The translations under genes were made by a program, and so were the position numbers. From positions 1 through 64,000 of IMG/VR virus record IMGVR_UViG_3300028591_000161: 64,000 nucleotides of DNA, one strand, 5' to 3'. Shown one piece after another: positions 19,933-28,548 of the stretch. How positions within the stretch are numbered: position 1 is the first letter of the stretch; each line of letters begins with the position of its first letter. The notes under the pieces were generated by a model that was given only the letters and a program-made list of their open reading frames with translations, searched no databases and was not told the DNA's origin. This stretch comes from a virus. Taxonomy: Duplodnaviria > Caudoviricetes.

Positions 19933-22119
19933 ATGGCAAAACCGAGAAAGACGGAAAACCCTGATGAGGTCATCAAGTGGATGAATCCGGATATGGAAGA
20001 GGAAACGACGTCCGGAAAGGGTGATGATGAAGACCTCGATGCAACGCCGGAAGGTGTTGGTGCTGGTGGATTTACCAATTCGCCCCTGGTGACATACACA
20101 AAGCTGTCACCATTTAAGAACTCTCCAAGAAACCAGCCGATCTCAAAGATCATCATTCACCATATGGCAGGTGTTGCATCAGTTGAATCATTCGGTACAA
20201 TTGTCACAACACCTGGACGCGAGATGTCTGCGAACTATGCAATCGGTAATGATGGACGGATTGGTCTGTATTGCCCTGAAGAAGACAGATGCTGGTGTTC
20301 TTCTTCTGCATGGGTGGATAACCGTGGCATCGCAATCGAAGTATCAAATTCCAAGCTTGGTGAACCATGGCCGATCTCCAAAAAAGCATGGGATTCGATG
20401 ATTGCGTTGTGCGCAGATATCTGCAAGCGCAACAATATTCCGAAGCTCACATATACTGGTGACAAGGAAGGATCCCTCTGTTTCCACAGATGGTTCGCGC
20501 CAACAGGTTGTGTTCCGATCGATACAACAGAAGTGCTGACACCGACCGGTTGGGTTCCAATTCGGGATGTACAGATCGGTGATGTGATTGCAACGGTATC
20601 GCCACAAGATTTCTCAATCCGGTTCGACAAGGTTGAGAACATGGTTCCTGTTCATAAGGATACCATATTCAATCTTCGTGGCATGGATATCACAAAAGAT
20701 CATCGTATTCTGTATTCCGTGGAAGGTGGTAGTGGATATCATCTGAACGAGTATCAGAAGGTCGCAGAAGGACAGATGCTGAATATTCCTGAAGCAGGTA
20801 TCTATGACGCCAAAGGCATGGATATCACATCATCACAAATGATATTCCTGCTCGAGATGCAACGAGTTGGAATGTATGATGATGAATTCCATACACTCGA
20901 ATTCGCATATATATCCGAACAACAGGTTGGATATATGGACGGGCTTCTGAAGAATCTCGAGTATTCATTCACACGAGAACAAGACGACCTGGGTCCTGTT
21001 AGATTCGTTGTCACTGATCCGAGAGCATGGAATCTTTGCATCTCCTATTTGTCAGGAAGCGATTTCAACTGGAAATGGTTGGAGATGAATCCAACACAGT
21101 TCTCGTATTTCATCTACAAGGCAACATCTCATGTGCGTACAGGATGGACCCGTCGGTACACATCTAATTCAATGACGAATATCGATATCGTTCAAGCAAT
21201 CTGTGCTTTGAATGGACGTGGAACGGAATTTGATCCCGAAACGAATTCATTGTATGTGAAGAATGGATATCGTCAGGTATCGACAAAGGAAGCTCGCACA
21301 ACTGATGACGTCGATGTTGCATGTGTAACCGTCAAGTCCGGATGCTTCCTGATGCGTCAGCATGGAATGACGACTCTGACAGGTAACTGCCCTGGTGAGT
21401 ACATTTATTCACGTGCACAACAGATTTGCGATGAAGTCAACGCGAAGTTGGCTGAAATGCCTGAACCAACACCTGAACCGGATCCTGAACCAGTGCCGGT
21501 TCAAATCAAACCTGGTGTGCTGGTATCTGTGAAAACAGGTGCAAGCTATTACAATGGTGCAAAGATCCCTGACTGGGTCACAAAACAAAGATGGTACGTA
21601 ACATCAGTATCTGGTGATCGTGCTGTACTTGGCAAGAATGAAGCTGGAAATTCCAATATCAATTCACCGGTTTCAACCAAGAATCTCACCGTTGTCCAGA
21701 ACGCATCTGCACAACCGGAAACAAAATTCATGCCATACTTGACAAAGCTTGCTGCTGGCACAAATATCTATGACATCAATACTCTGAATCTGAAAGGACA
21801 AATCATGATTTCGACGGCATATACAATTGTCGAAGAGACTGTTCTGAATGGTGCTAAGTATGGTAAGTTGAAATCGGGTGCAGGATGGGTTCGTCTGGGA
21901 TCCGATACTACTCAGCCTGTTGACAATACGATTCATCCCGGTGATAAAGTGTCTGTCATAAGTAAAGATGGAACTGCTCCTACATATGAAGGTGGTTCAT
22001 TCCATGTTTACGAGAAGGAATATACCGTTCTTCGTGTCAACGGAGATCGTGTCGTGATTTCTTCGGATGGGAAAAATGTGACTGCTGCCGTTAAGGCATT
22101 GAATTTGATCAAAAAATAA
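19933..22119 (+). CDS. N-acetylmuramoyl-L-alanine amidase (Amidase_2/T7 lysozyme type) endolysin with intein and C-terminal SH3-like cell-wall-binding modules
   Basis: Amidase motifs IIIHHMAG, SANYAIG, IAIEVSN, HRWF..T.|CPG; Pro/Glu linker; C-terminal repeats (WYVTSVSGDRAVLG, YGKLKSGAGWV). Confidence 0.88.
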   Translation: MAKPRKTENPDEVIKWMNPDMEEETTSGKGDDEDLDATPEGVGAGGFTNSPLVTYTKLSPFKNSPRNQPISKIIIHHMAGVASVESFGTIVTTPGREMSANYAIGNDGRIGLYCPEEDRCWCSSSAWVDNRGIAIEVSNSKLGEPWPISKKAWDSMIALCADICKRNNIPKLTYTGDKEGSLCFHRWFAPTGCVPIDTTEVLTPTGWVPIRDVQIGDVIATVSPQDFSIRFDKVENMVPVHKDTIFNLRGMDITKDHRILYSVEGGSGYHLNEYQKVAEGQMLNIPEAGIYDAKGMDITSSQMIFLLEMQRVGMYDDEFHTLEFAYISEQQVGYMDGLLKNLEYSFTREQDDLGPVRFVVTDPRAWNLCISYLSGSDFNWKWLEMNPTQFSYFIYKATSHVRTGWTRRYTSNSMTNIDIVQAICALNGRGTEFDPETNSLYVKNGYRQVSTKEARTTDDVDVACVTVKSGCFLMRQHGMTTLTGNCPGEYIYSRAQQICDEVNAKLAEMPEPTPEPDPEPVPVQIKPGVLVSVKTGASYYNGAKIPDWVTKQRWYVTSVSGDRAVLGKNEAGNSNINSPVSTKNLTVVQNASAQPETKFMPYLTKLAAGTNIYDINTLNLKGQIMISTAYTIVEETVLNGAKYGKLKSGAGWVRLGSDTTQPVDNTIHPGDKVSVISKDGTAPTYEGGSFHVYEKEYTVLRVNGDRVVISSDGKNVTAAVKALNLIKK
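20509..21387 (+). mobile_element. Intein (293 aa) with degenerate LAGLIDADG-type endonuclease region
   Basis: Block A CVPIDTTEVLTPTGWVPIRDVQIGD, block B ITKDHRI, block F VACVTVKSGCFLMRQHG and block G TLTGN followed by +1 Cys. Removing it restores HRWFAPTG-CPG. Confidence 0.9.
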
Positions 22120-22157: not shown

Positions 22158-22463
22158 TCAGTTTCGGTATGTAATCTCTGTGATATCTCCATCACGCAGT
22201 GCGCGGATAGAAATTACACAGAGACCTGTTCCCGAATGATCGAACTGAGTATACCAACCGATCAGAATTGCATCCATCTCAGCGGTGTCGACGATGACAC
22301 GGATACGATCCCCGTTTGTGTATACCCAGTTTCCGTTACAAAAATCCATTCGTTCACGAATGGATCCATTTATAAACGTGATCCGGTTGCCACGGATCAC
22401 GCATGTCATCCCCATAATTGATACGGGAATGAAAGGGATCTCTAATGTTTCTTTGTTCTTCAT
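22158..22463 (-). CDS. Hypothetical protein (early-type cassette)
   Basis: 101-aa ORF with RBS AAAGGAG, an upstream AT-rich promoter-like motif, and a convergent terminator shared with the amidase. Confidence 0.65.
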   Translation of the reverse strand: MKNKETLEIPFIPVSIMGMTCVIRGNRITFINGSIRERMDFCNGNWVYTNGDRIRVIVDTAEMDAILIGWYTQFDHSGTGLCVISIRALRDGDITEITYRN

Positions 22464-22636: not shown

Positions 22637-24469
22637 ATGGCCGAGCTAATCAAATCACAACCTCCACGTCCGATGAAATTTGCACCGGATACATTACTCT
22701 TTGATGTGCGATATTATCGGCGGAGCAAGGATAATGCAGAATGTTTTGAAATCATCACATGGAATCCGGTGACACAAACACTCGAGGTTGATTATGAGGA
22801 TCCAATCATTGATATCTGGTTTTTGAAACCGGAATTCCGAAATAATAAGTATCAGATTGCACAAGTAGACATGGATAAATGTTATCCATTCTATTGTAGG
22901 CCATCGCAGGTAGCGGCAGTTATTGCACAGGAGATCGGTGGCGAATGGGCAGATTGGTATCAACATAATAAAGACCAATACCCACGAAATGATGTCCAGC
23001 GTCATATGTGTGAATGCCCATGGGTGTTTGCTGCAGACTTTGAACCACCTGTTTATTATAGACTGCGATGGTTCGAGCAGTATGGAAAACAGATCGACTT
23101 GACAAAAGTATCTGACAGCTATCTGGATATTGAGACCGATGTCATTGACCGCGAAATCAACATGAAAGATATCTTCAATTCACCGCATCCTGTGAATGCA
23201 GTAACATTGATTCTTCCACATGTTAAAATCGCGGTATTGCTTGCATTGGGCCCGAGACCAAAGCACAAGATCGACAAGAAATTCTGGGGTCTGTTGGAAA
23301 TGCAGCAAAAAGAATATGAATGGGTCATTTCCCATATGGATGAATTCAAACGAATGTTACGCGAAGATGATCCGGATAATATGAAATATCTGGAAGGGTT
23401 TGATATTCGGGTACACATGTTTGAGTTTGATGATGAAATCAAACTGATCAAGACTGTGTTTGATTATATCAATAAATATCGTCCGATGTTTGTTGAATCA
23501 TGGAACGGCAAGTTTGACCATCCAAGACTGTGGCATCGCATTGAATATCTCGGATATGATCCAATCGACATTATGATTCCAAAGGAATTCAAAACGAAAC
23601 GACTGTTCTATCAGGAAGACCAATCTGGTAACTTCCAGATGAAAAATTCACGTGACTGGTTCCATACATCTACATATTCAATCTATATCTGCCAGATGAG
23701 ATTGTTTGCAGCGATCAGAAAATCGCAACAAGAACGACGGTCATATTCATTGAACTCGGTTGGTTCTGAAATGTGTGGAATCGTAAAGTTAACCGATACG
23801 AAATCTGGCTCATTCCGTGTGTTCGCATATACCGACTATATCAAGTTTCTCTTATATAACTTCCGTGACGTGGTTGTGCAGTATGCAATTGGTGAAACGA
23901 CACATGATACACAGACACTCGTATCCCGTTCATTCAACTTTGCAACAGCATATCCGAAATGTTTCCAAGAGACACATATCGTTCGGAATGCACGCGAATA
24001 TTACTATCGGAAGTTTTCCAAGAAAGTACAAGCTTGTCGTCTGATTGTTGATAAGGACCGTGACACCGCATTCAAAGGCGCATTTGTTGCACCGCCTGAA
24101 AAGAATGCACCGACGGGTTTGATCTTAAATGGTAAGAACCATAACAACATCATATTCGGAGCGTTGGATGCTGATGCTGCATCATATTATCCGTCCACAA
24201 AGATGGGTATGAACATGGATCCGATGTCATTGTTGTACAAATGTATCATCATGAATGATCGGTTCCAAAACGGTGAGTGTACGAATCGTTCTTTGTGTCA
24301 GGTATATGAATGGTATGATTCAAAGAACAAACCACATCCGGAAGATATGTCCGGACCGATTATCAATGCATTCAAGAATGGAAATCCGTGTTCATTGATG
24401 AATAACTGGTTTAGTCTTCCAACCGTATCGGAGTATTTCCAGTTCCTTGATACATGTGATACAAAATAA
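22637..24469 (+). CDS. polB: Family B DNA polymerase, N-terminal subunit (3'-5' exonuclease plus motif A) of a split enzyme
   Basis: ExoI YLDIETD, ExoII SWNGKFDHP, ExoIII YNFRDV, FKGAFV and motif A DADAASYYPS are present. The ORF stops before motifs B and C. Confidence 0.88.
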   Translation: MAELIKSQPPRPMKFAPDTLLFDVRYYRRSKDNAECFEIITWNPVTQTLEVDYEDPIIDIWFLKPEFRNNKYQIAQVDMDKCYPFYCRPSQVAAVIAQEIGGEWADWYQHNKDQYPRNDVQRHMCECPWVFAADFEPPVYYRLRWFEQYGKQIDLTKVSDSYLDIETDVIDREINMKDIFNSPHPVNAVTLILPHVKIAVLLALGPRPKHKIDKKFWGLLEMQQKEYEWVISHMDEFKRMLREDDPDNMKYLEGFDIRVHMFEFDDEIKLIKTVFDYINKYRPMFVESWNGKFDHPRLWHRIEYLGYDPIDIMIPKEFKTKRLFYQEDQSGNFQMKNSRDWFHTSTYSIYICQMRLFAAIRKSQQERRSYSLNSVGSEMCGIVKLTDTKSGSFRVFAYTDYIKFLLYNFRDVVVQYAIGETTHDTQTLVSRSFNFATAYPKCFQETHIVRNAREYYYRKFSKKVQACRLIVDKDRDTAFKGAFVAPPEKNAPTGLILNGKNHNNIIFGALDADAASYYPSTKMGMNMDPMSLLYKCIIMNDRFQNGECTNRSLCQVYEWYDSKNKPHPEDMSGPIINAFKNGNPCSLMNNWFSLPTVSEYFQFLDTCDTK

Positions 24470-24488
24470 AGAAAGGAAGGATGCCTTT

Positions 24489-26762
24489 ATGACAGACGAA
24501 TACTTTGACGATATTGAGAGTATTGAACTCGGAGACATATCAAAGCGATATATGTGTTTATATGGATGGAACATCATCCTGCAAAGAGCAATCCCGATGC
24601 TTACTGACGGTTTGAAACCGTTGCACCGAAGAATCATGTGGGCATTGTATGAGAAGAACGGTGGAGACAAGATGAAAGTTGCAGAGATTCAGGGTTTGAC
24701 GATGCGTTATTCGCCACACTCTGAATTGAACACGCGTTTCACGATTGCAGGTTTGGTCCAACCGTTCTCGAATAATGTACCACTCATGACGGCAGACTCC
24801 GGTTTTGGTTCTTCCATTATGGGTGTTGATGTTGCTGCTGCGAGATACTGGGAAGCAGGAATCTCCCCGTTTGCTAAAGAAGTATTCTTCAAAGAATTCG
24901 ATTCCTCAGTAAATATGAAAGATTCATATGACGGAAAATATAAAGAACCTATCACATTTCCCGCACGTTTTCCAGTGATCCTTCTGAATGGATCGAATGG
25001 AATTGCATATTCCATGTCATCCAATATTCTCCCGTATAATATCAACGAAGTCGCTGATGCTACCATCAAACTGTTGAAGAATCCAGAAGCCAAAGTGCAT
25101 CTGATACCAGATTCACCAACATGCTGTGATGTTATCAAGCGTGATGATACCACATTTGTTTTCCAATCAACATACGATATTGATACCGTGAATTACACGA
25201 TATCGATTATGAACACCCCACCTGGTGAATATATCCATGTGATTGATAAAGCTTTGCGTGCAATTCAGGATTCACCGAATCCAATCAAAGAGATTATCTC
25301 TCCGGATAATGAGTGTGAACTCACTGAGGACATCTTCAAGTATGTGATTCGTTGTAAACCGTGTAATCTGTATCAAGTCATCGAGACATTGTTCCGACGT
25401 GTCCCTGGATTCAGAATCACGGTATCTACACGAAACTGTTCTGTGATTGATCCACAATTCAGGACGCAATACTACAATGAGCGTCAAATCCTGTTAGCGT
25501 GGATTGCCAACCGTTTGAAAGAAAAACGCTCATGGTTCCTGCGCAAGCTTGTTCATGTCCAGACGATGTATAACATGATGGAAGGCAAACGGTTTATGTT
25601 GTCACCCGAGAATCTGAATAAGACGATTAAAGTATTCCGCAAATGTGAAGATGAGAATGAGATCGTTCAAGCGTTGGTACAAGCGTACAATGGTAAAGTT
25701 TCCACTTCACAAGCAAACTTCGTATCGGGTTTGAGAATGTCCAAATTGACCAACGGCGAATACAAAAAGACTGTGGCTAAGATTGAAGAACTTGATGAAC
25801 AGATCACAAGTCTGAAAGCAATCGTGAACAGTCCGGAATGTATTCGCGATAAAGTCATTGAAGACATTAAGATGATTCGAGAGAAGTTTGGTCATCCGCG
25901 TCGTTCTAAGATTCTGAATTTGAAGGACGGAATGACAGCGAATATCTCAACATGCCAGATTCTGAAGGACGGCACAGTCCTGTTCTCTGAAACAGAAAAT
26001 CCGAATCATTTCGCGTCTGATGTAACTCCGATCAATGGCGATGAAGTTTGTCTGATTGATCAATATGGTAAGACATTGTGGGTGAATGTGAATAAGGTTC
26101 CGCATGACAGTCCAATTGCATTAACAGCAATCGGGAAAGAACCGATGGGTGCGTGCATCGCAGTAATTCCCAGATCTTCAAGATCCATTGTCATGCTCAC
26201 AAATAAGGGGCGTATTAAACTGATGCCAATCGAGAAGATTCCATCAAATCAATCTAGAAAGCCATTGATTCCGTTGAACAATGGCGAATATCTGGTATCT
26301 ATTTTGAATGTCGATGGTTCTTCCGAAGACCTTCTCGTATACACGTCTGATGGTTTTGGCAAACGTTTCTCCGTAACAGATTTGAACTCTGTAAATTCTC
26401 CTGATGCGCAAGGACAGTTCATTGTGAAGGATTGTGATGTCGCTGGTATCTTTGTACTCAATCCGAATAAACCGTACATTTTCTATGCTACAAAGCTCGG
26501 AAGGGTTCGGTTGAACAACAGTCGCTTCCTTGTTGCTACCAAGAAATTCGGAGGAATGAAACCGATCATCAAACTCTCTGCACAGGACGATCTGATTGCC
26601 GTATTCTGCACGGATAAAGATCAGACGGTGACGTTATATCATGAAGACGGTCGAATCTCATCCGTGAATATCGATACCATGGATCCAGTCACGATGAATA
26701 CGCCTCCAGCAAAACCCAAACATGTCCCAGGTGTAAGAGTGATACGCGCAACATTATCGTGA
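24489..26762 (+). CDS. gyrA: Type IIA topoisomerase subunit A (GyrA/ParC-like) with C-terminal beta-pinwheel repeats
   Basis: RAIPMLTDGLKPLHRRI, YSPH, AAARYWE (catalytic Tyr), PVILLNGSNGIA and repeated C-terminal blades. Start 24489 after AAAGGAAGG. Confidence 0.88.
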   Translation: MTDEYFDDIESIELGDISKRYMCLYGWNIILQRAIPMLTDGLKPLHRRIMWALYEKNGGDKMKVAEIQGLTMRYSPHSELNTRFTIAGLVQPFSNNVPLMTADSGFGSSIMGVDVAAARYWEAGISPFAKEVFFKEFDSSVNMKDSYDGKYKEPITFPARFPVILLNGSNGIAYSMSSNILPYNINEVADATIKLLKNPEAKVHLIPDSPTCCDVIKRDDTTFVFQSTYDIDTVNYTISIMNTPPGEYIHVIDKALRAIQDSPNPIKEIISPDNECELTEDIFKYVIRCKPCNLYQVIETLFRRVPGFRITVSTRNCSVIDPQFRTQYYNERQILLAWIANRLKEKRSWFLRKLVHVQTMYNMMEGKRFMLSPENLNKTIKVFRKCEDENEIVQALVQAYNGKVSTSQANFVSGLRMSKLTNGEYKKTVAKIEELDEQITSLKAIVNSPECIRDKVIEDIKMIREKFGHPRRSKILNLKDGMTANISTCQILKDGTVLFSETENPNHFASDVTPINGDEVCLIDQYGKTLWVNVNKVPHDSPIALTAIGKEPMGACIAVIPRSSRSIVMLTNKGRIKLMPIEKIPSNQSRKPLIPLNNGEYLVSILNVDGSSEDLLVYTSDGFGKRFSVTDLNSVNSPDAQGQFIVKDCDVAGIFVLNPNKPYIFYATKLGRVRLNNSRFLVATKKFGGMKPIIKLSAQDDLIAVFCTDKDQTVTLYHEDGRISSVNIDTMDPVTMNTPPAKPKHVPGVRVIRATLS

Positions 26763-27006: not shown

Positions 27007-28548
27007 TTGTCATTTAAGGTGACAATTCGTGCGACGTCCATAACGGTGCAACCGGGACAAGAATCATTACTCCCGTTAGCACCGTTATTGGATATGCATG
27101 AGTATGAAGACGAATACCAACAGACAACAAAGGTACTGGGGTATATGTTGGACGAGACTCATGATGTATTGTATCTGCACAAAGGTGTTGACATTGATTA
27201 TCTTCGCAGATTGCTAAGTGATGTTGAGTTCGCATATGATCCATATGACTCATACAAAGAAATGAATTATCAATTCGAAGAAGCATTCCCACCCAAGAAT
27301 GAAGACCAAGAAGATGTTATCAAATTCTTATCCGGTAAACCACCATATCATGAAAATATGAAAGAATCGCAGATATTCTTGGTAAAGGTGGGAGGGTTCG
27401 GCAAATCGTTCTGTGCAGGATATGCAATGGGTGAACTCGGAATGAAGACATTGATTATCATGCACCGTGATAGTCTTCGTTCACAATGGGTCAATTCGCT
27501 ATATGATCTAAATGGATATTCATCGAAGGAAGTACACGAATTAACATCGTCAGGTGAATTGGAAGCGATCGCAAATGGGCAACTAGAATTAGATTATGAT
27601 ATCTATCTAATGACACATGCAACATTCCAAGCAGCATGTAACCGAATTCGTGATTGTGAGAAGATTCATAACATCACAAAGAATCTTCATATTGGATTGA
27701 AGATCATCGACGAGGCTCACCTATATTTCAGAGACACATTGTTGATGGATTTCTTGTTCAATGTGAAACGTAATGTGTACTTGACGGCAACAGATGGTCG
27801 CTCATCAAAAGATGAAGATGCTATTTTCCGGCATGCTTTCTCTAAAGCAGTCTTTTATCGAAAGATATCCGTTTCAGATGAAAAATCACATCCAGACAAA
27901 TGGGTTGAATATATCACGGTTGATATCAATACAAAATGTCCAACCAGTGTTTACAAGTATCGCGTAAATGGTGGTCGGGGCATGTCAGCTGTATCGTATG
28001 GCAAATGGGTTATTCAACGTGATAAAAAACAAACACACTTCAAAGTGTGTCGTGATATTTTGAAGACTATCTATGAGAACGAACCAAGTGCGAAAGTGAT
28101 CATATTCATGCCTCTGATTGATTTGTGTACAGACTGTGCATATTTCCTAAATATGGAATTGAGCAATGATCCATCGTTCGAATATTCGCTCGACGTTAGG
28201 ACAGTGAATTCTCACAATTCCAAATCAGAGAATGAATACAACAAACGCTCTGCAGATGTGATTGTCACTACTGTACAATCACTCGGAACAGGTTCAGACA
28301 TCAAAGGAATCACGGACATCATTAATTGTTCGCCGATCGTTTCGAAAATTGTTGTGAAGCAGGTTTTGTGGCGTATTCGATACATTCCGAAACCGTGTCA
28401 TTACTATGACATCGTAGATGTATCTGTTCCAATGGATCGACATTGGTGGAGTTCCCGCAAACGAACACTAGAAGCGATGACGACGAAATATTCTCATATT
28501 GCATGGGTTGAGGAGGACTCACATGACACCGATCAAGTCAATAACTAA
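27007..28548 (+). CDS. Superfamily 2 DExH helicase (UvsW/XPB-like)
   Basis: Variant Walker A GGFGKS, IIDEAH, LTAT motif III, and VIVTTVQSLGTGSDIKGI motif V. TTG start. Confidence 0.85.
   Translation: MSFKVTIRATSITVQPGQESLLPLAPLLDMHEYEDEYQQTTKVLGYMLDETHDVLYLHKGVDIDYLRRLLSDVEFAYDPYDSYKEMNYQFEEAFPPKNEDQEDVIKFLSGKPPYHENMKESQIFLVKVGGFGKSFCAGYAMGELGMKTLIIMHRDSLRSQWVNSLYDLNGYSSKEVHELTSSGELEAIANGQLELDYDIYLMTHATFQAACNRIRDCEKIHNITKNLHIGLKIIDEAHLYFRDTLLMDFLFNVKRNVYLTATDGRSSKDEDAIFRHAFSKAVFYRKISVSDEKSHPDKWVEYITVDINTKCPTSVYKYRVNGGRGMSAVSYGKWVIQRDKKQTHFKVCRDILKTIYENEPSAKVIIFMPLIDLCTDCAYFLNMELSNDPSFEYSLDVRTVNSHNSKSENEYNKRSADVIVTTVQSLGTGSDIKGITDIINCSPIVSKIVVKQVLWRIRYIPKPCHYYDIVDVSVPMDRHWWSSRKRTLEAMTTKYSHIAWVEEDSHDTDQVNN

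Follow-up and report, generated by a model that had tools for sequence, protein, structure and literature searches.

The endolysin gene and its in-frame insert

The window analysed here is a stretch of 64,000 nucleotides of viral DNA (Duplodnaviria; Caudoviricetes; positions 1 to 64,000 of IMG/VR record IMGVR_UViG_3300028591_000161), and within it lies an endolysin gene whose amidase domain is split by an intein at the cysteine predicted to be the third zinc ligand of the enzyme. Pfam Amidase_2 matches precursor residues 67-172 (E 1.1e-15) and breaks off at profile position 113/131, because the chain is interrupted by the insert; several PHROG endolysin families are matched as well (best E 9.5e-45). 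The insert follows ...CFHRWFAPTG, starts with CVPIDTTEVLTPTGW and ends ...GMTTLTGN, and the host sequence picks up at CPGEYIYSRAQQ, giving the junction HRWFAPTG/C...TLTGN/CPG. Within the amidase core the Tyr of SANYAIG (Y102) is conserved, and the C-terminal part of the protein, formed by the C-extein, is common to 382 shorter homologues. The gene and its parts, with lengths in amino acids (aa), are as follows.

19933..22119, plus strand: endolysin precursor gene, 728 aa plus stop (open reading frame list, Pfam Amidase_2, PHROG endolysin families)
19933..20508, plus strand: N-extein, 192 aa; an acidic N-terminal extension of about 46 aa, then the Amidase_2 core
20509..21387, plus strand: intein, 293 aa, Cys1 to terminal Gly-Asn (sequence, AlphaFold2 model, Foldseek, intein-less homologues)
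20509..20802, plus strand: Hint N-lobe, intein residues 1-98 (block A Cys1, block B; model beta strands 7-94)
20509-20511, plus strand: intein Cys1, TGT (sequence)
20692-20703, plus strand: block B T62-K-D-H65, TxxH (sequence)
21265..21387, plus strand: Hint C-lobe, intein residues 253-293, with C272 (21322-21324), R283 and G292-N293 (21382-21387)
21382-21384, plus strand: penultimate Gly292, GGT (sequence)
21385-21387, plus strand: terminal Asn293, AAC (sequence)
21388-21390, plus strand: +1 Cys, TGC (sequence)
21388..22116, plus strand: C-extein, 243 aa; +1 Cys, last amidase helix, Pro/Glu linker and repeated wall-binding modules

Judged by its sequence and predicted fold, the insert is, far beyond chance, a genuine intein. 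An AlphaFold2 model built on a 138-row alignment (A2; the intein plus 137 homologues) reached a predicted local distance difference test score (pLDDT) of 97.3 and a predicted template modelling score of 0.93; from the single sequence the model was unusable (pLDDT 34). Foldseek matched the model to the TliVMA and PhoVMA inteins (E 2.6e-11 to 9e-10) and also to PI-SceI and PI-PfuI (template modelling (TM) score 0.68 for PI-PfuI; weakest intein match E 7e-7), and its matches for the part outside the centre were hedgehog Hint domains (probability 1.00, as for the solved inteins) and mini-inteins. At the level of sequence, Pfam gave only a weak Hint_2 match (E 0.2), and searches of the intein against the PDB by phmmer and against PHROGs gave no matches. 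The features of an intein are nevertheless present, namely a Hint fold, Cys1 with a block B TxxH, a terminal Asn followed by a +1 Cys, and a host sequence that is continuous without the insert; the penultimate His (block G position 6) is absent, and Gly292 stands in its place. Intein-less alleles, which the initial annotation of the locus had proposed to look for, were found by search: all 66 such homologues are seamless at the junction, running through H-x7-C-P-G with no gap, and one of them (P0059) reads FHRFFAATACPGEY across it. We rejected an intron (a DNA- or RNA-level insert), given that the insert keeps the reading frame, is free of stops in every member and shows the Hint fold. The precursor presumably splices. 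No second intein was found in the 83-kb record that holds the window.

The zinc site at the splice junction

In T7 lysozyme the zinc ligands are His17, His122 and Cys130, and in the Ts2631 endolysin the change equivalent to the loss of that cysteine, C139S, abolishes activity (PMC4573324). The first two ligands of the window's endolysin lie in the N-extein.

20158-20160, plus strand: zinc ligand H76 (profile alignment to PlyL 1yb0 and T7 lysozyme)
20485-20487, plus strand: zinc ligand H185 (profile alignment to PlyL 1yb0 and T7 lysozyme)

A wide family profile aligns H185 with PlyL H129 and the +1 Cys with PlyL C137 (H185-x7-Cys; 1yb0, E 4e-22), and it also aligns the amidase part to PlyG, XlyA and T7 lysozyme (1lba/1aro, E 6e-6), the last of these alignments ending on Cys130, eight positions past the His. 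The register rests on this wider profile (A2, the 138-row alignment): a phmmer search of the PDB with an intein-less homologue gave no match, a 38-row profile searched against the PDB reached only AmpDh2 and left the Cys uncovered, and an hhalign comparison with T7 lysozyme placed H...C in register as expected, though without significance (probability 0.24%). On these alignments the predicted zinc triad is H76, H185 and the +1 Cys (within CPGEY). The His-His-Cys triad plus Tyr of Amidase_2 enzymes of the T7-lysozyme/PGRP type is thus found, although the triad is complete only after splicing. The placement of the intein at the zinc-ligand Cys, as first annotated, is exact to the nucleotide.

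Since the third zinc ligand and the last amidase helix lie 293 residues downstream in the precursor, the endolysin is incomplete before splicing, which supports the earlier proposal that the enzyme is inactive until the intein has been removed. In the unspliced chain the ligand's position in the sequence is held by Cys1 of the intein (H185-x7-C193), and either splice nucleophile might in principle be held by zinc bound at this half-assembled site.

A degenerate LAGLIDADG domain

Between the two Hint lobes the model has a fold of alpha-beta-beta-alpha-beta-beta-alpha twice, with interface helices at residues 108-120 and 195-205, and Foldseek matched this central domain to I-DmoI, I-SceI and I-Tsp061I (probability 1.00), and to WhiA too.

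20803..21264, plus strand: degenerate LAGLIDADG homing-endonuclease domain, intein residues 99-252 (model fold, Foldseek)
20836..20871, plus strand: LAGLIDADG motif 1, QMIFLLEMQRVG; V120 (20866-20868) in place of the relatives' catalytic Asp
21097..21147, plus strand: LAGLIDADG motif 2, QFSYFIYKATSHVRTGW; V209-R210 (21133-21138) in place of the relatives' Asp-Gly

The two LAGLIDADG helices are 87 residues apart and end in V120 and V209-R210-T211, where canonical relatives have Asp-Gly (QADG and xDGC); the two-lobe fold of a LAGLIDADG enzyme is therefore there and the acid at each helix end is not. Two of the segments quoted in the initial annotation correspond to these helices. The relatives fall into two lineages, type A and type B, the latter including the window (see below). 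At motif 1 the acid is found in none of 63 type B clusters, in 28/30 of type A and in 114/127 wider representatives. The [DE]G of motif 2 occurs in 16/63, 28/30 and 108/127, respectively, and a looser pattern, [DE]x?G, is matched by 37/63 of type B. Among the type B versions of motif 2, the window's HVRTGW is the sole one with an Arg and without any acid. By the catalytic residues, the endonuclease of the window is expected to be inactive, and some of its type B relatives could, at best, nick. Dead homing, as the initial annotation had suggested, agrees with the replacement of both catalytic acids and with the failure of the lineage to spread into intein-less alleles.

An intein family of phage amidases

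With the intein alone as query, an exhaustive phmmer search across 1.84 billion cluster representatives returned 291 clusters (defined at 50% identity) at E <= 1e-3 and 114 at E <= 1e-10. In most of these matches the protein is 550-650 aa long and the intein lies some 150 residues from its N-terminus; 14 of 19 sampled matches are Amidase_2 lysins in which the intein starts where the Amidase_2 profile ends, with CHAP, glucosaminidase, PG_binding_1, SPOR, phage tail lysozyme or DUF4214 as partner domains. DNA polymerase A and the ribonucleotide reductase small subunit also host full-length, though weaker, relatives. The H-x7-C-P-G zinc site of phage Amidase_2 endolysins is thus, as far as these sequences indicate, the regular homing site of the intein family, and the site, thought unusual when the locus was first annotated, is ordinary within a large family of amidase inteins.

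The family has a distinctive set of nearly invariant residues:

Cys1: 194/194 aligned members
T62: 218/220 members
H65: 218/220 members
Cys272: 218/220 members
Arg283: 219/220 members
Gly292: 215/216 members
Asn293: 211/213 members
+1 Cys: 201/201 aligned members

The penultimate Gly, which had been read as an anomaly, is therefore a family trait and not a defect. Position 280, where the block F His is expected, holds I, F, L, V or M. Cys272 sits at the expected block F position 4 (the block being assigned by position only), which is usually Asp in class 1 inteins and provides the branch nucleophile in class 3. Three members (P0234, P0244 and P0249) have Pro at position 1 in place of Cys1 and keep Cys272, and an internal nucleophile may thus be available to the family.

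No relative of the intein was found among 50,697 GenBank phage records, and a search of a genome collection with profile A4 returned two metagenome-assembled loci only, bacterial genomes contributing little. Our literature search turned up no description of an intein in an endolysin or amidase, and none of 224 mycobacteriophage Lysin A genes is interrupted (PMC3314691). Most known inteins reside in proteins of replication, repair and packaging, whereas the present family occupies phage lysis enzymes at a zinc-ligand Cys.

Two lineages, one mobile and one bound to a clade

Endolysins with the same wall-binding C-terminus were collected by intein and C-extein searches, on contigs of up to 285 kb, and a tree of the exteins only was built with FastTree from 159 rows (93 intein carriers and 66 intein-less proteins). 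Type A (30 clusters) has the canonical motifs FLVAVQADG and x[YF]DGC, with both acids in 28/30. Two of its members, P0385 and P0359, have a degenerate motif 1 (QSAG and NACG, respectively), and look like independent early steps of endonuclease decay. Type B (63 clusters, the window included) has FLLExQ[RK][IV]G as motif 1 and a variable motif 2, often with Asn-Gly.

The distributions of the two lineages differ. On the extein tree type A requires 23 gains or losses (mean for shuffled labels 27.9) and type B only 2, that is, one clade and one loss within it (P0059). Over the full-length exteins the closest intein-less allele is up to 98.5% identical for type A and at most 72% for type B. The sporadic distribution of a homing endonuclease is thus not seen for type B; such a distribution, which had been named as the mark of a simple parasite, is found for the family as a whole and fails for the clade-bound lineage of the window. 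The two lineages meet in nature: sample ERZ28633325 holds a type B intein (L010, a 195-kb scaffold) and a type A intein (L012, a 285-kb scaffold) in the homologous endolysin, and despite this co-occurrence no type B intein has turned up in the other extein clade. The gene order endolysin, PolB-exo, GyrA is common to intein-less, type A and type B carriers. The guanine plus cytosine content of the intein (0.444, against 0.421 for the window) makes it look long resident. Taken together, the pattern is as would be expected of an active homing element (type A) and its fixed, immobile descendant (type B).

Within type B the segments of the gene have partly different histories, and strict vertical descent of the intein is rejected. 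Segment identities are moderately correlated (Spearman 0.34-0.63; the two exteins mutually 0.47). Compared with the window, P0015, its nearest relative by extein, has exteins of 95% and 81% identity, a Hint-N and endonuclease domain of 58-64% and a Hint-C of 71%, and P0002 has an intein of 76-85% and a C-extein of 72%. Ordinary recombination among related phages would suffice to explain this, with no endonuclease required.

Neighbouring genes and other parts of the endolysin

Downstream of the endolysin lie a small open reading frame and a block of further genes.

22158-22463, minus strand: small open reading frame, 101 aa, just downstream of the endolysin
22637-24469: family B polymerase exonuclease-domain (PolB-exo) protein, 610 aa, with no other domain (Pfam E 6.5e-6)
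24447-26762: GyrA homologue, directly after the PolB-exo protein
27007-28548: DEAD/ResIII helicase, after the GyrA homologue

The small minus-strand frame recurs (90-103 aa) at the same place in L008, L009, L010 and L013; it has no family match and no obvious membrane segments, and it is probably not a holin. In the type A relative L012, genes for HNH/NUMOD4 endonucleases flank the PolB-exo/GyrA/helicase block.

The acidic N-terminal extension (MAKPRKTENPDEV...GVG; endolysin residues 1-46, 19933-20070) stands ahead of the amidase in part of the type B clade only, the other members beginning directly at FTNSPL; conceivable roles are those of a propeptide or of a tag for targeting or packaging. 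The wall-binding repeat modules of the C-extein (21388-22116) are without a Pfam match. The Joint Genome Institute annotation of C-terminal fragments of the homologues P0057 and P0112 as the transcription factor NusG is likely a misannotation, presumably made through a KOW/SH3-like fold.

Why the intein has been kept

With moderate confidence we favour the explanation that the intein is a stranded selfish element, dead as an endonuclease and kept intact by selection in the endolysin of a jumbo phage. The precursor would be made as a single 728-aa chain and would splice through an N-S acyl shift at Cys1, transfer to the +1 Cys and cyclisation of Asn293 without the penultimate His, so that ...FAPTG would be joined to CPGEY..., which would make the amidase's zinc site and last helix whole. 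The ancestors of the lineage would have spread by means of a two-motif LAGLIDADG endonuclease; the window's lineage would then have lost the motif-1 acid and the window the motif-2 acid too, and with both acids lost the element would be unable to cut empty sites. It would now be fixed in one endolysin clade, inherited vertically and reshuffled by ordinary recombination, and its occupied site would probably be immune to the active endonucleases of co-infecting relatives. As to why it has been retained intact, we infer that damage to folding or splicing destroys an essential lysis enzyme, such that only an exact deletion can remove the intein. Splicing is most likely constitutive.

Mean pairwise identities within type B bear on this explanation:

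Amidase core: 71%
Hint-N: 49%
Endonuclease-like domain: 57%
Hint-C: 57%
Wall-binding part: 52%

Several observations weigh against a purely stranded element. The dead endonuclease domain is conserved as well as or better than the Hint domain (57%, against 49% and 57%), and in the closest pair its rate of non-synonymous substitution (dN) is 0.095, against 0.177 for Hint-N. The intein measures 290-298 aa in 63/63 type B clusters, with no mini-intein, whereas mini-inteins might be expected of an element that is simply stranded, and only one loss has occurred within the deep type B clade. The synonymous rate (dS) is saturated (>1) in every informative pair, and comparisons accordingly use relative dN and per-domain identity. 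The dN of the endonuclease-like domain is no higher than that of Hint-N in all informative pairs but one (eleven genes), and dN/dS, which with such saturation is rough, comes to 0.09-0.26 for the endonuclease-like domain and 0.03-0.11 for the amidase core. With the exteins under such strong constraint the gene would have to be in use, and the intein would therefore have to splice. These comparisons indicate that the dead domain is not decaying freely and is under purifying selection. The simplest reason for the constraint is that the intein holds an essential enzyme hostage, damage to folding or splicing being lethal. The retention of the intein, to which the initial annotation had drawn attention, holds, with selection acting on it.

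The endonuclease-like domain may, alternatively, still be functional, by binding DNA, by nicking through the motif-2 acid, or by protecting the site against type A endonucleases. Such a function would be compatible with a stranded element, and it would account for a domain that is at least as well conserved as Hint and never deleted, for the motif-2 [DE]G or [DE]x?G kept by 16 and 37 of the 63 clusters, respectively, and for the partly uncoupled histories of intein and extein within the clade (P0015); active type A elements are, moreover, present in the same sample. In the window, however, both motifs lack an acid. Type B is confined to its own extein clade, so that no invasion is seen, and the correlation between the two exteins (Spearman 0.47) is as loose as that of the exteins with the intein, for which ordinary recombination is enough. 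We consider a retained function of the domain unlikely.

A further alternative is that the intein is a domesticated regulator whose conditional splicing gates the endolysin until late in infection, the candidate signals being temperature, zinc bound at the junction and a disulfide linking two of Cys1, Cys272 and the +1 Cys. In its favour, the unspliced enzyme is not complete; the precursor has Cys1 in the ligand position of H-x7-C, where zinc could hold either nucleophile; and the whole intein is under purifying selection, without shrinkage and with a single loss. Conditional splicing in response to zinc or oxidants is, in addition, documented in other inteins, for example that of mycobacterial DnaB (PMC6195587). 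Against this, close relatives with the same gene order use endolysins with no intein or with a mobile one, and P0059, a member of the clade, has lost its intein; lysis control in this phage family can therefore do without one. The catalytic signature is identical to that of the mobile relatives, with no clade-specific change in the splicing residues, and the requirement for folding and splicing can account for the sequence constraint. Furthermore, it is normally the holins that determine when lysis occurs, endolysin being present in excess, which also counts against gating at this step. Conditional splicing as a regulator is, in our judgement, distinctly improbable, and the timer or sensor of lysis suggested for this intein at the outset is not favoured, since sister phages without an intein, or with a mobile one, lyse. 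We hold it similarly doubtful that a jumbo-phage clade has co-opted its homing-dead intein either for zinc- or redox-conditional maturation of the endolysin or as a shield against the endonucleases of competitors; if true, a selfish element would have been turned into a module of lysis control or interference immunity.

That the insert does not splice at all, being a cleavage-only Hint-type domain or a decayed insert in a dead gene, might be argued from the missing penultimate His, the absence of the expected block F His at position 280 and the weak Hint_2 match, but is hardly credible given that none of Cys1, TxxH, the terminal Asn and the +1 Cys is missing and that all of them hardly vary, that cleavage alone would leave the amidase without its third zinc ligand, that strong purifying selection acts on the two exteins throughout the 63 clusters, and that the reading frame is open in all members.

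One gene in uncultured jumbo phages thus occurs in three states, with an empty site, with a mobile intein and with a fixed intein whose endonuclease is dead, and provides a natural test bed for asking whether fixed inteins decay or gain a use, and whether splicing can serve to control an enzyme in which a metal ligand is also the splice nucleophile. For endolysin engineering, the family marks precursors that would be inactive unless spliced.

Comparison with known systems

The closest structural likeness is to TliVMA/PhoVMA (PDB 7qsu, 7qss and 7qst), PI-SceI (1vde) and PI-PfuI (1dq3), which, like the window's intein, are Hint domains with an inserted two-lobed LAGLIDADG domain (TM up to 0.68) and share with it Cys1, TxxH, the terminal Asn, the +1 nucleophile and insertion at a conserved active-site motif of the host. 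In contrast to these, the window's intein has a lysis enzyme as its host rather than an ATPase or polymerase, is only 8-12% identical to them in sequence, is compact (293 aa) with both catalytic acids replaced, and differs further in its penultimate Gly, its Cys at block F position 4 and its invariant Arg283.

Among class 1 inteins without a penultimate His, that of mycobacteriophage Bethlehem gp51, a recombination directionality factor (RDF), has a penultimate Gly and splices completely, and more slowly once the His is restored (Kelley et al. 2016, PMC5050341). Since a phage intein of this type splices without the penultimate His, Gly292 is no bar to intein membership. The two are alike in their features: both are phage inteins with a penultimate Gly and a LAGLIDADG endonuclease, but they differ in host protein and site, and the RDF endonuclease is active (toxic in Escherichia coli).

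Class 3 inteins have no nucleophile at position 1 and carry a Trp(B:12)-Cys(F:4)-Thr(G:5) triplet, WCT (PMC5050341, PMC7664689). In common with this class (MP-Be DnaB, MchDnaB1; PMC2807308, PMC7664689), the family has Cys F:4 in 218/220 and the window Thr291 at G:5, and the three members with Pro at position 1 would need an internal nucleophile. The window's intein, however, has Cys1 and Ile67 at B:12, a position that in the family is I, V or M and never Trp, and G:5 is Thr in 117/220. Membership of class 3 is therefore rejected for the window's intein, to which only Cys272 and Thr291 conform.

Finally, the distribution resembles the homing cycle of invasion, fixation, degeneration and loss (as framed in PMC13619312), in that active, sporadic copies stand beside fixed, degenerate ones in one gene family. 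It differs from it in that the degenerate stage is here long-lived, under purifying selection and without shortening, which the simple cycle does not predict.

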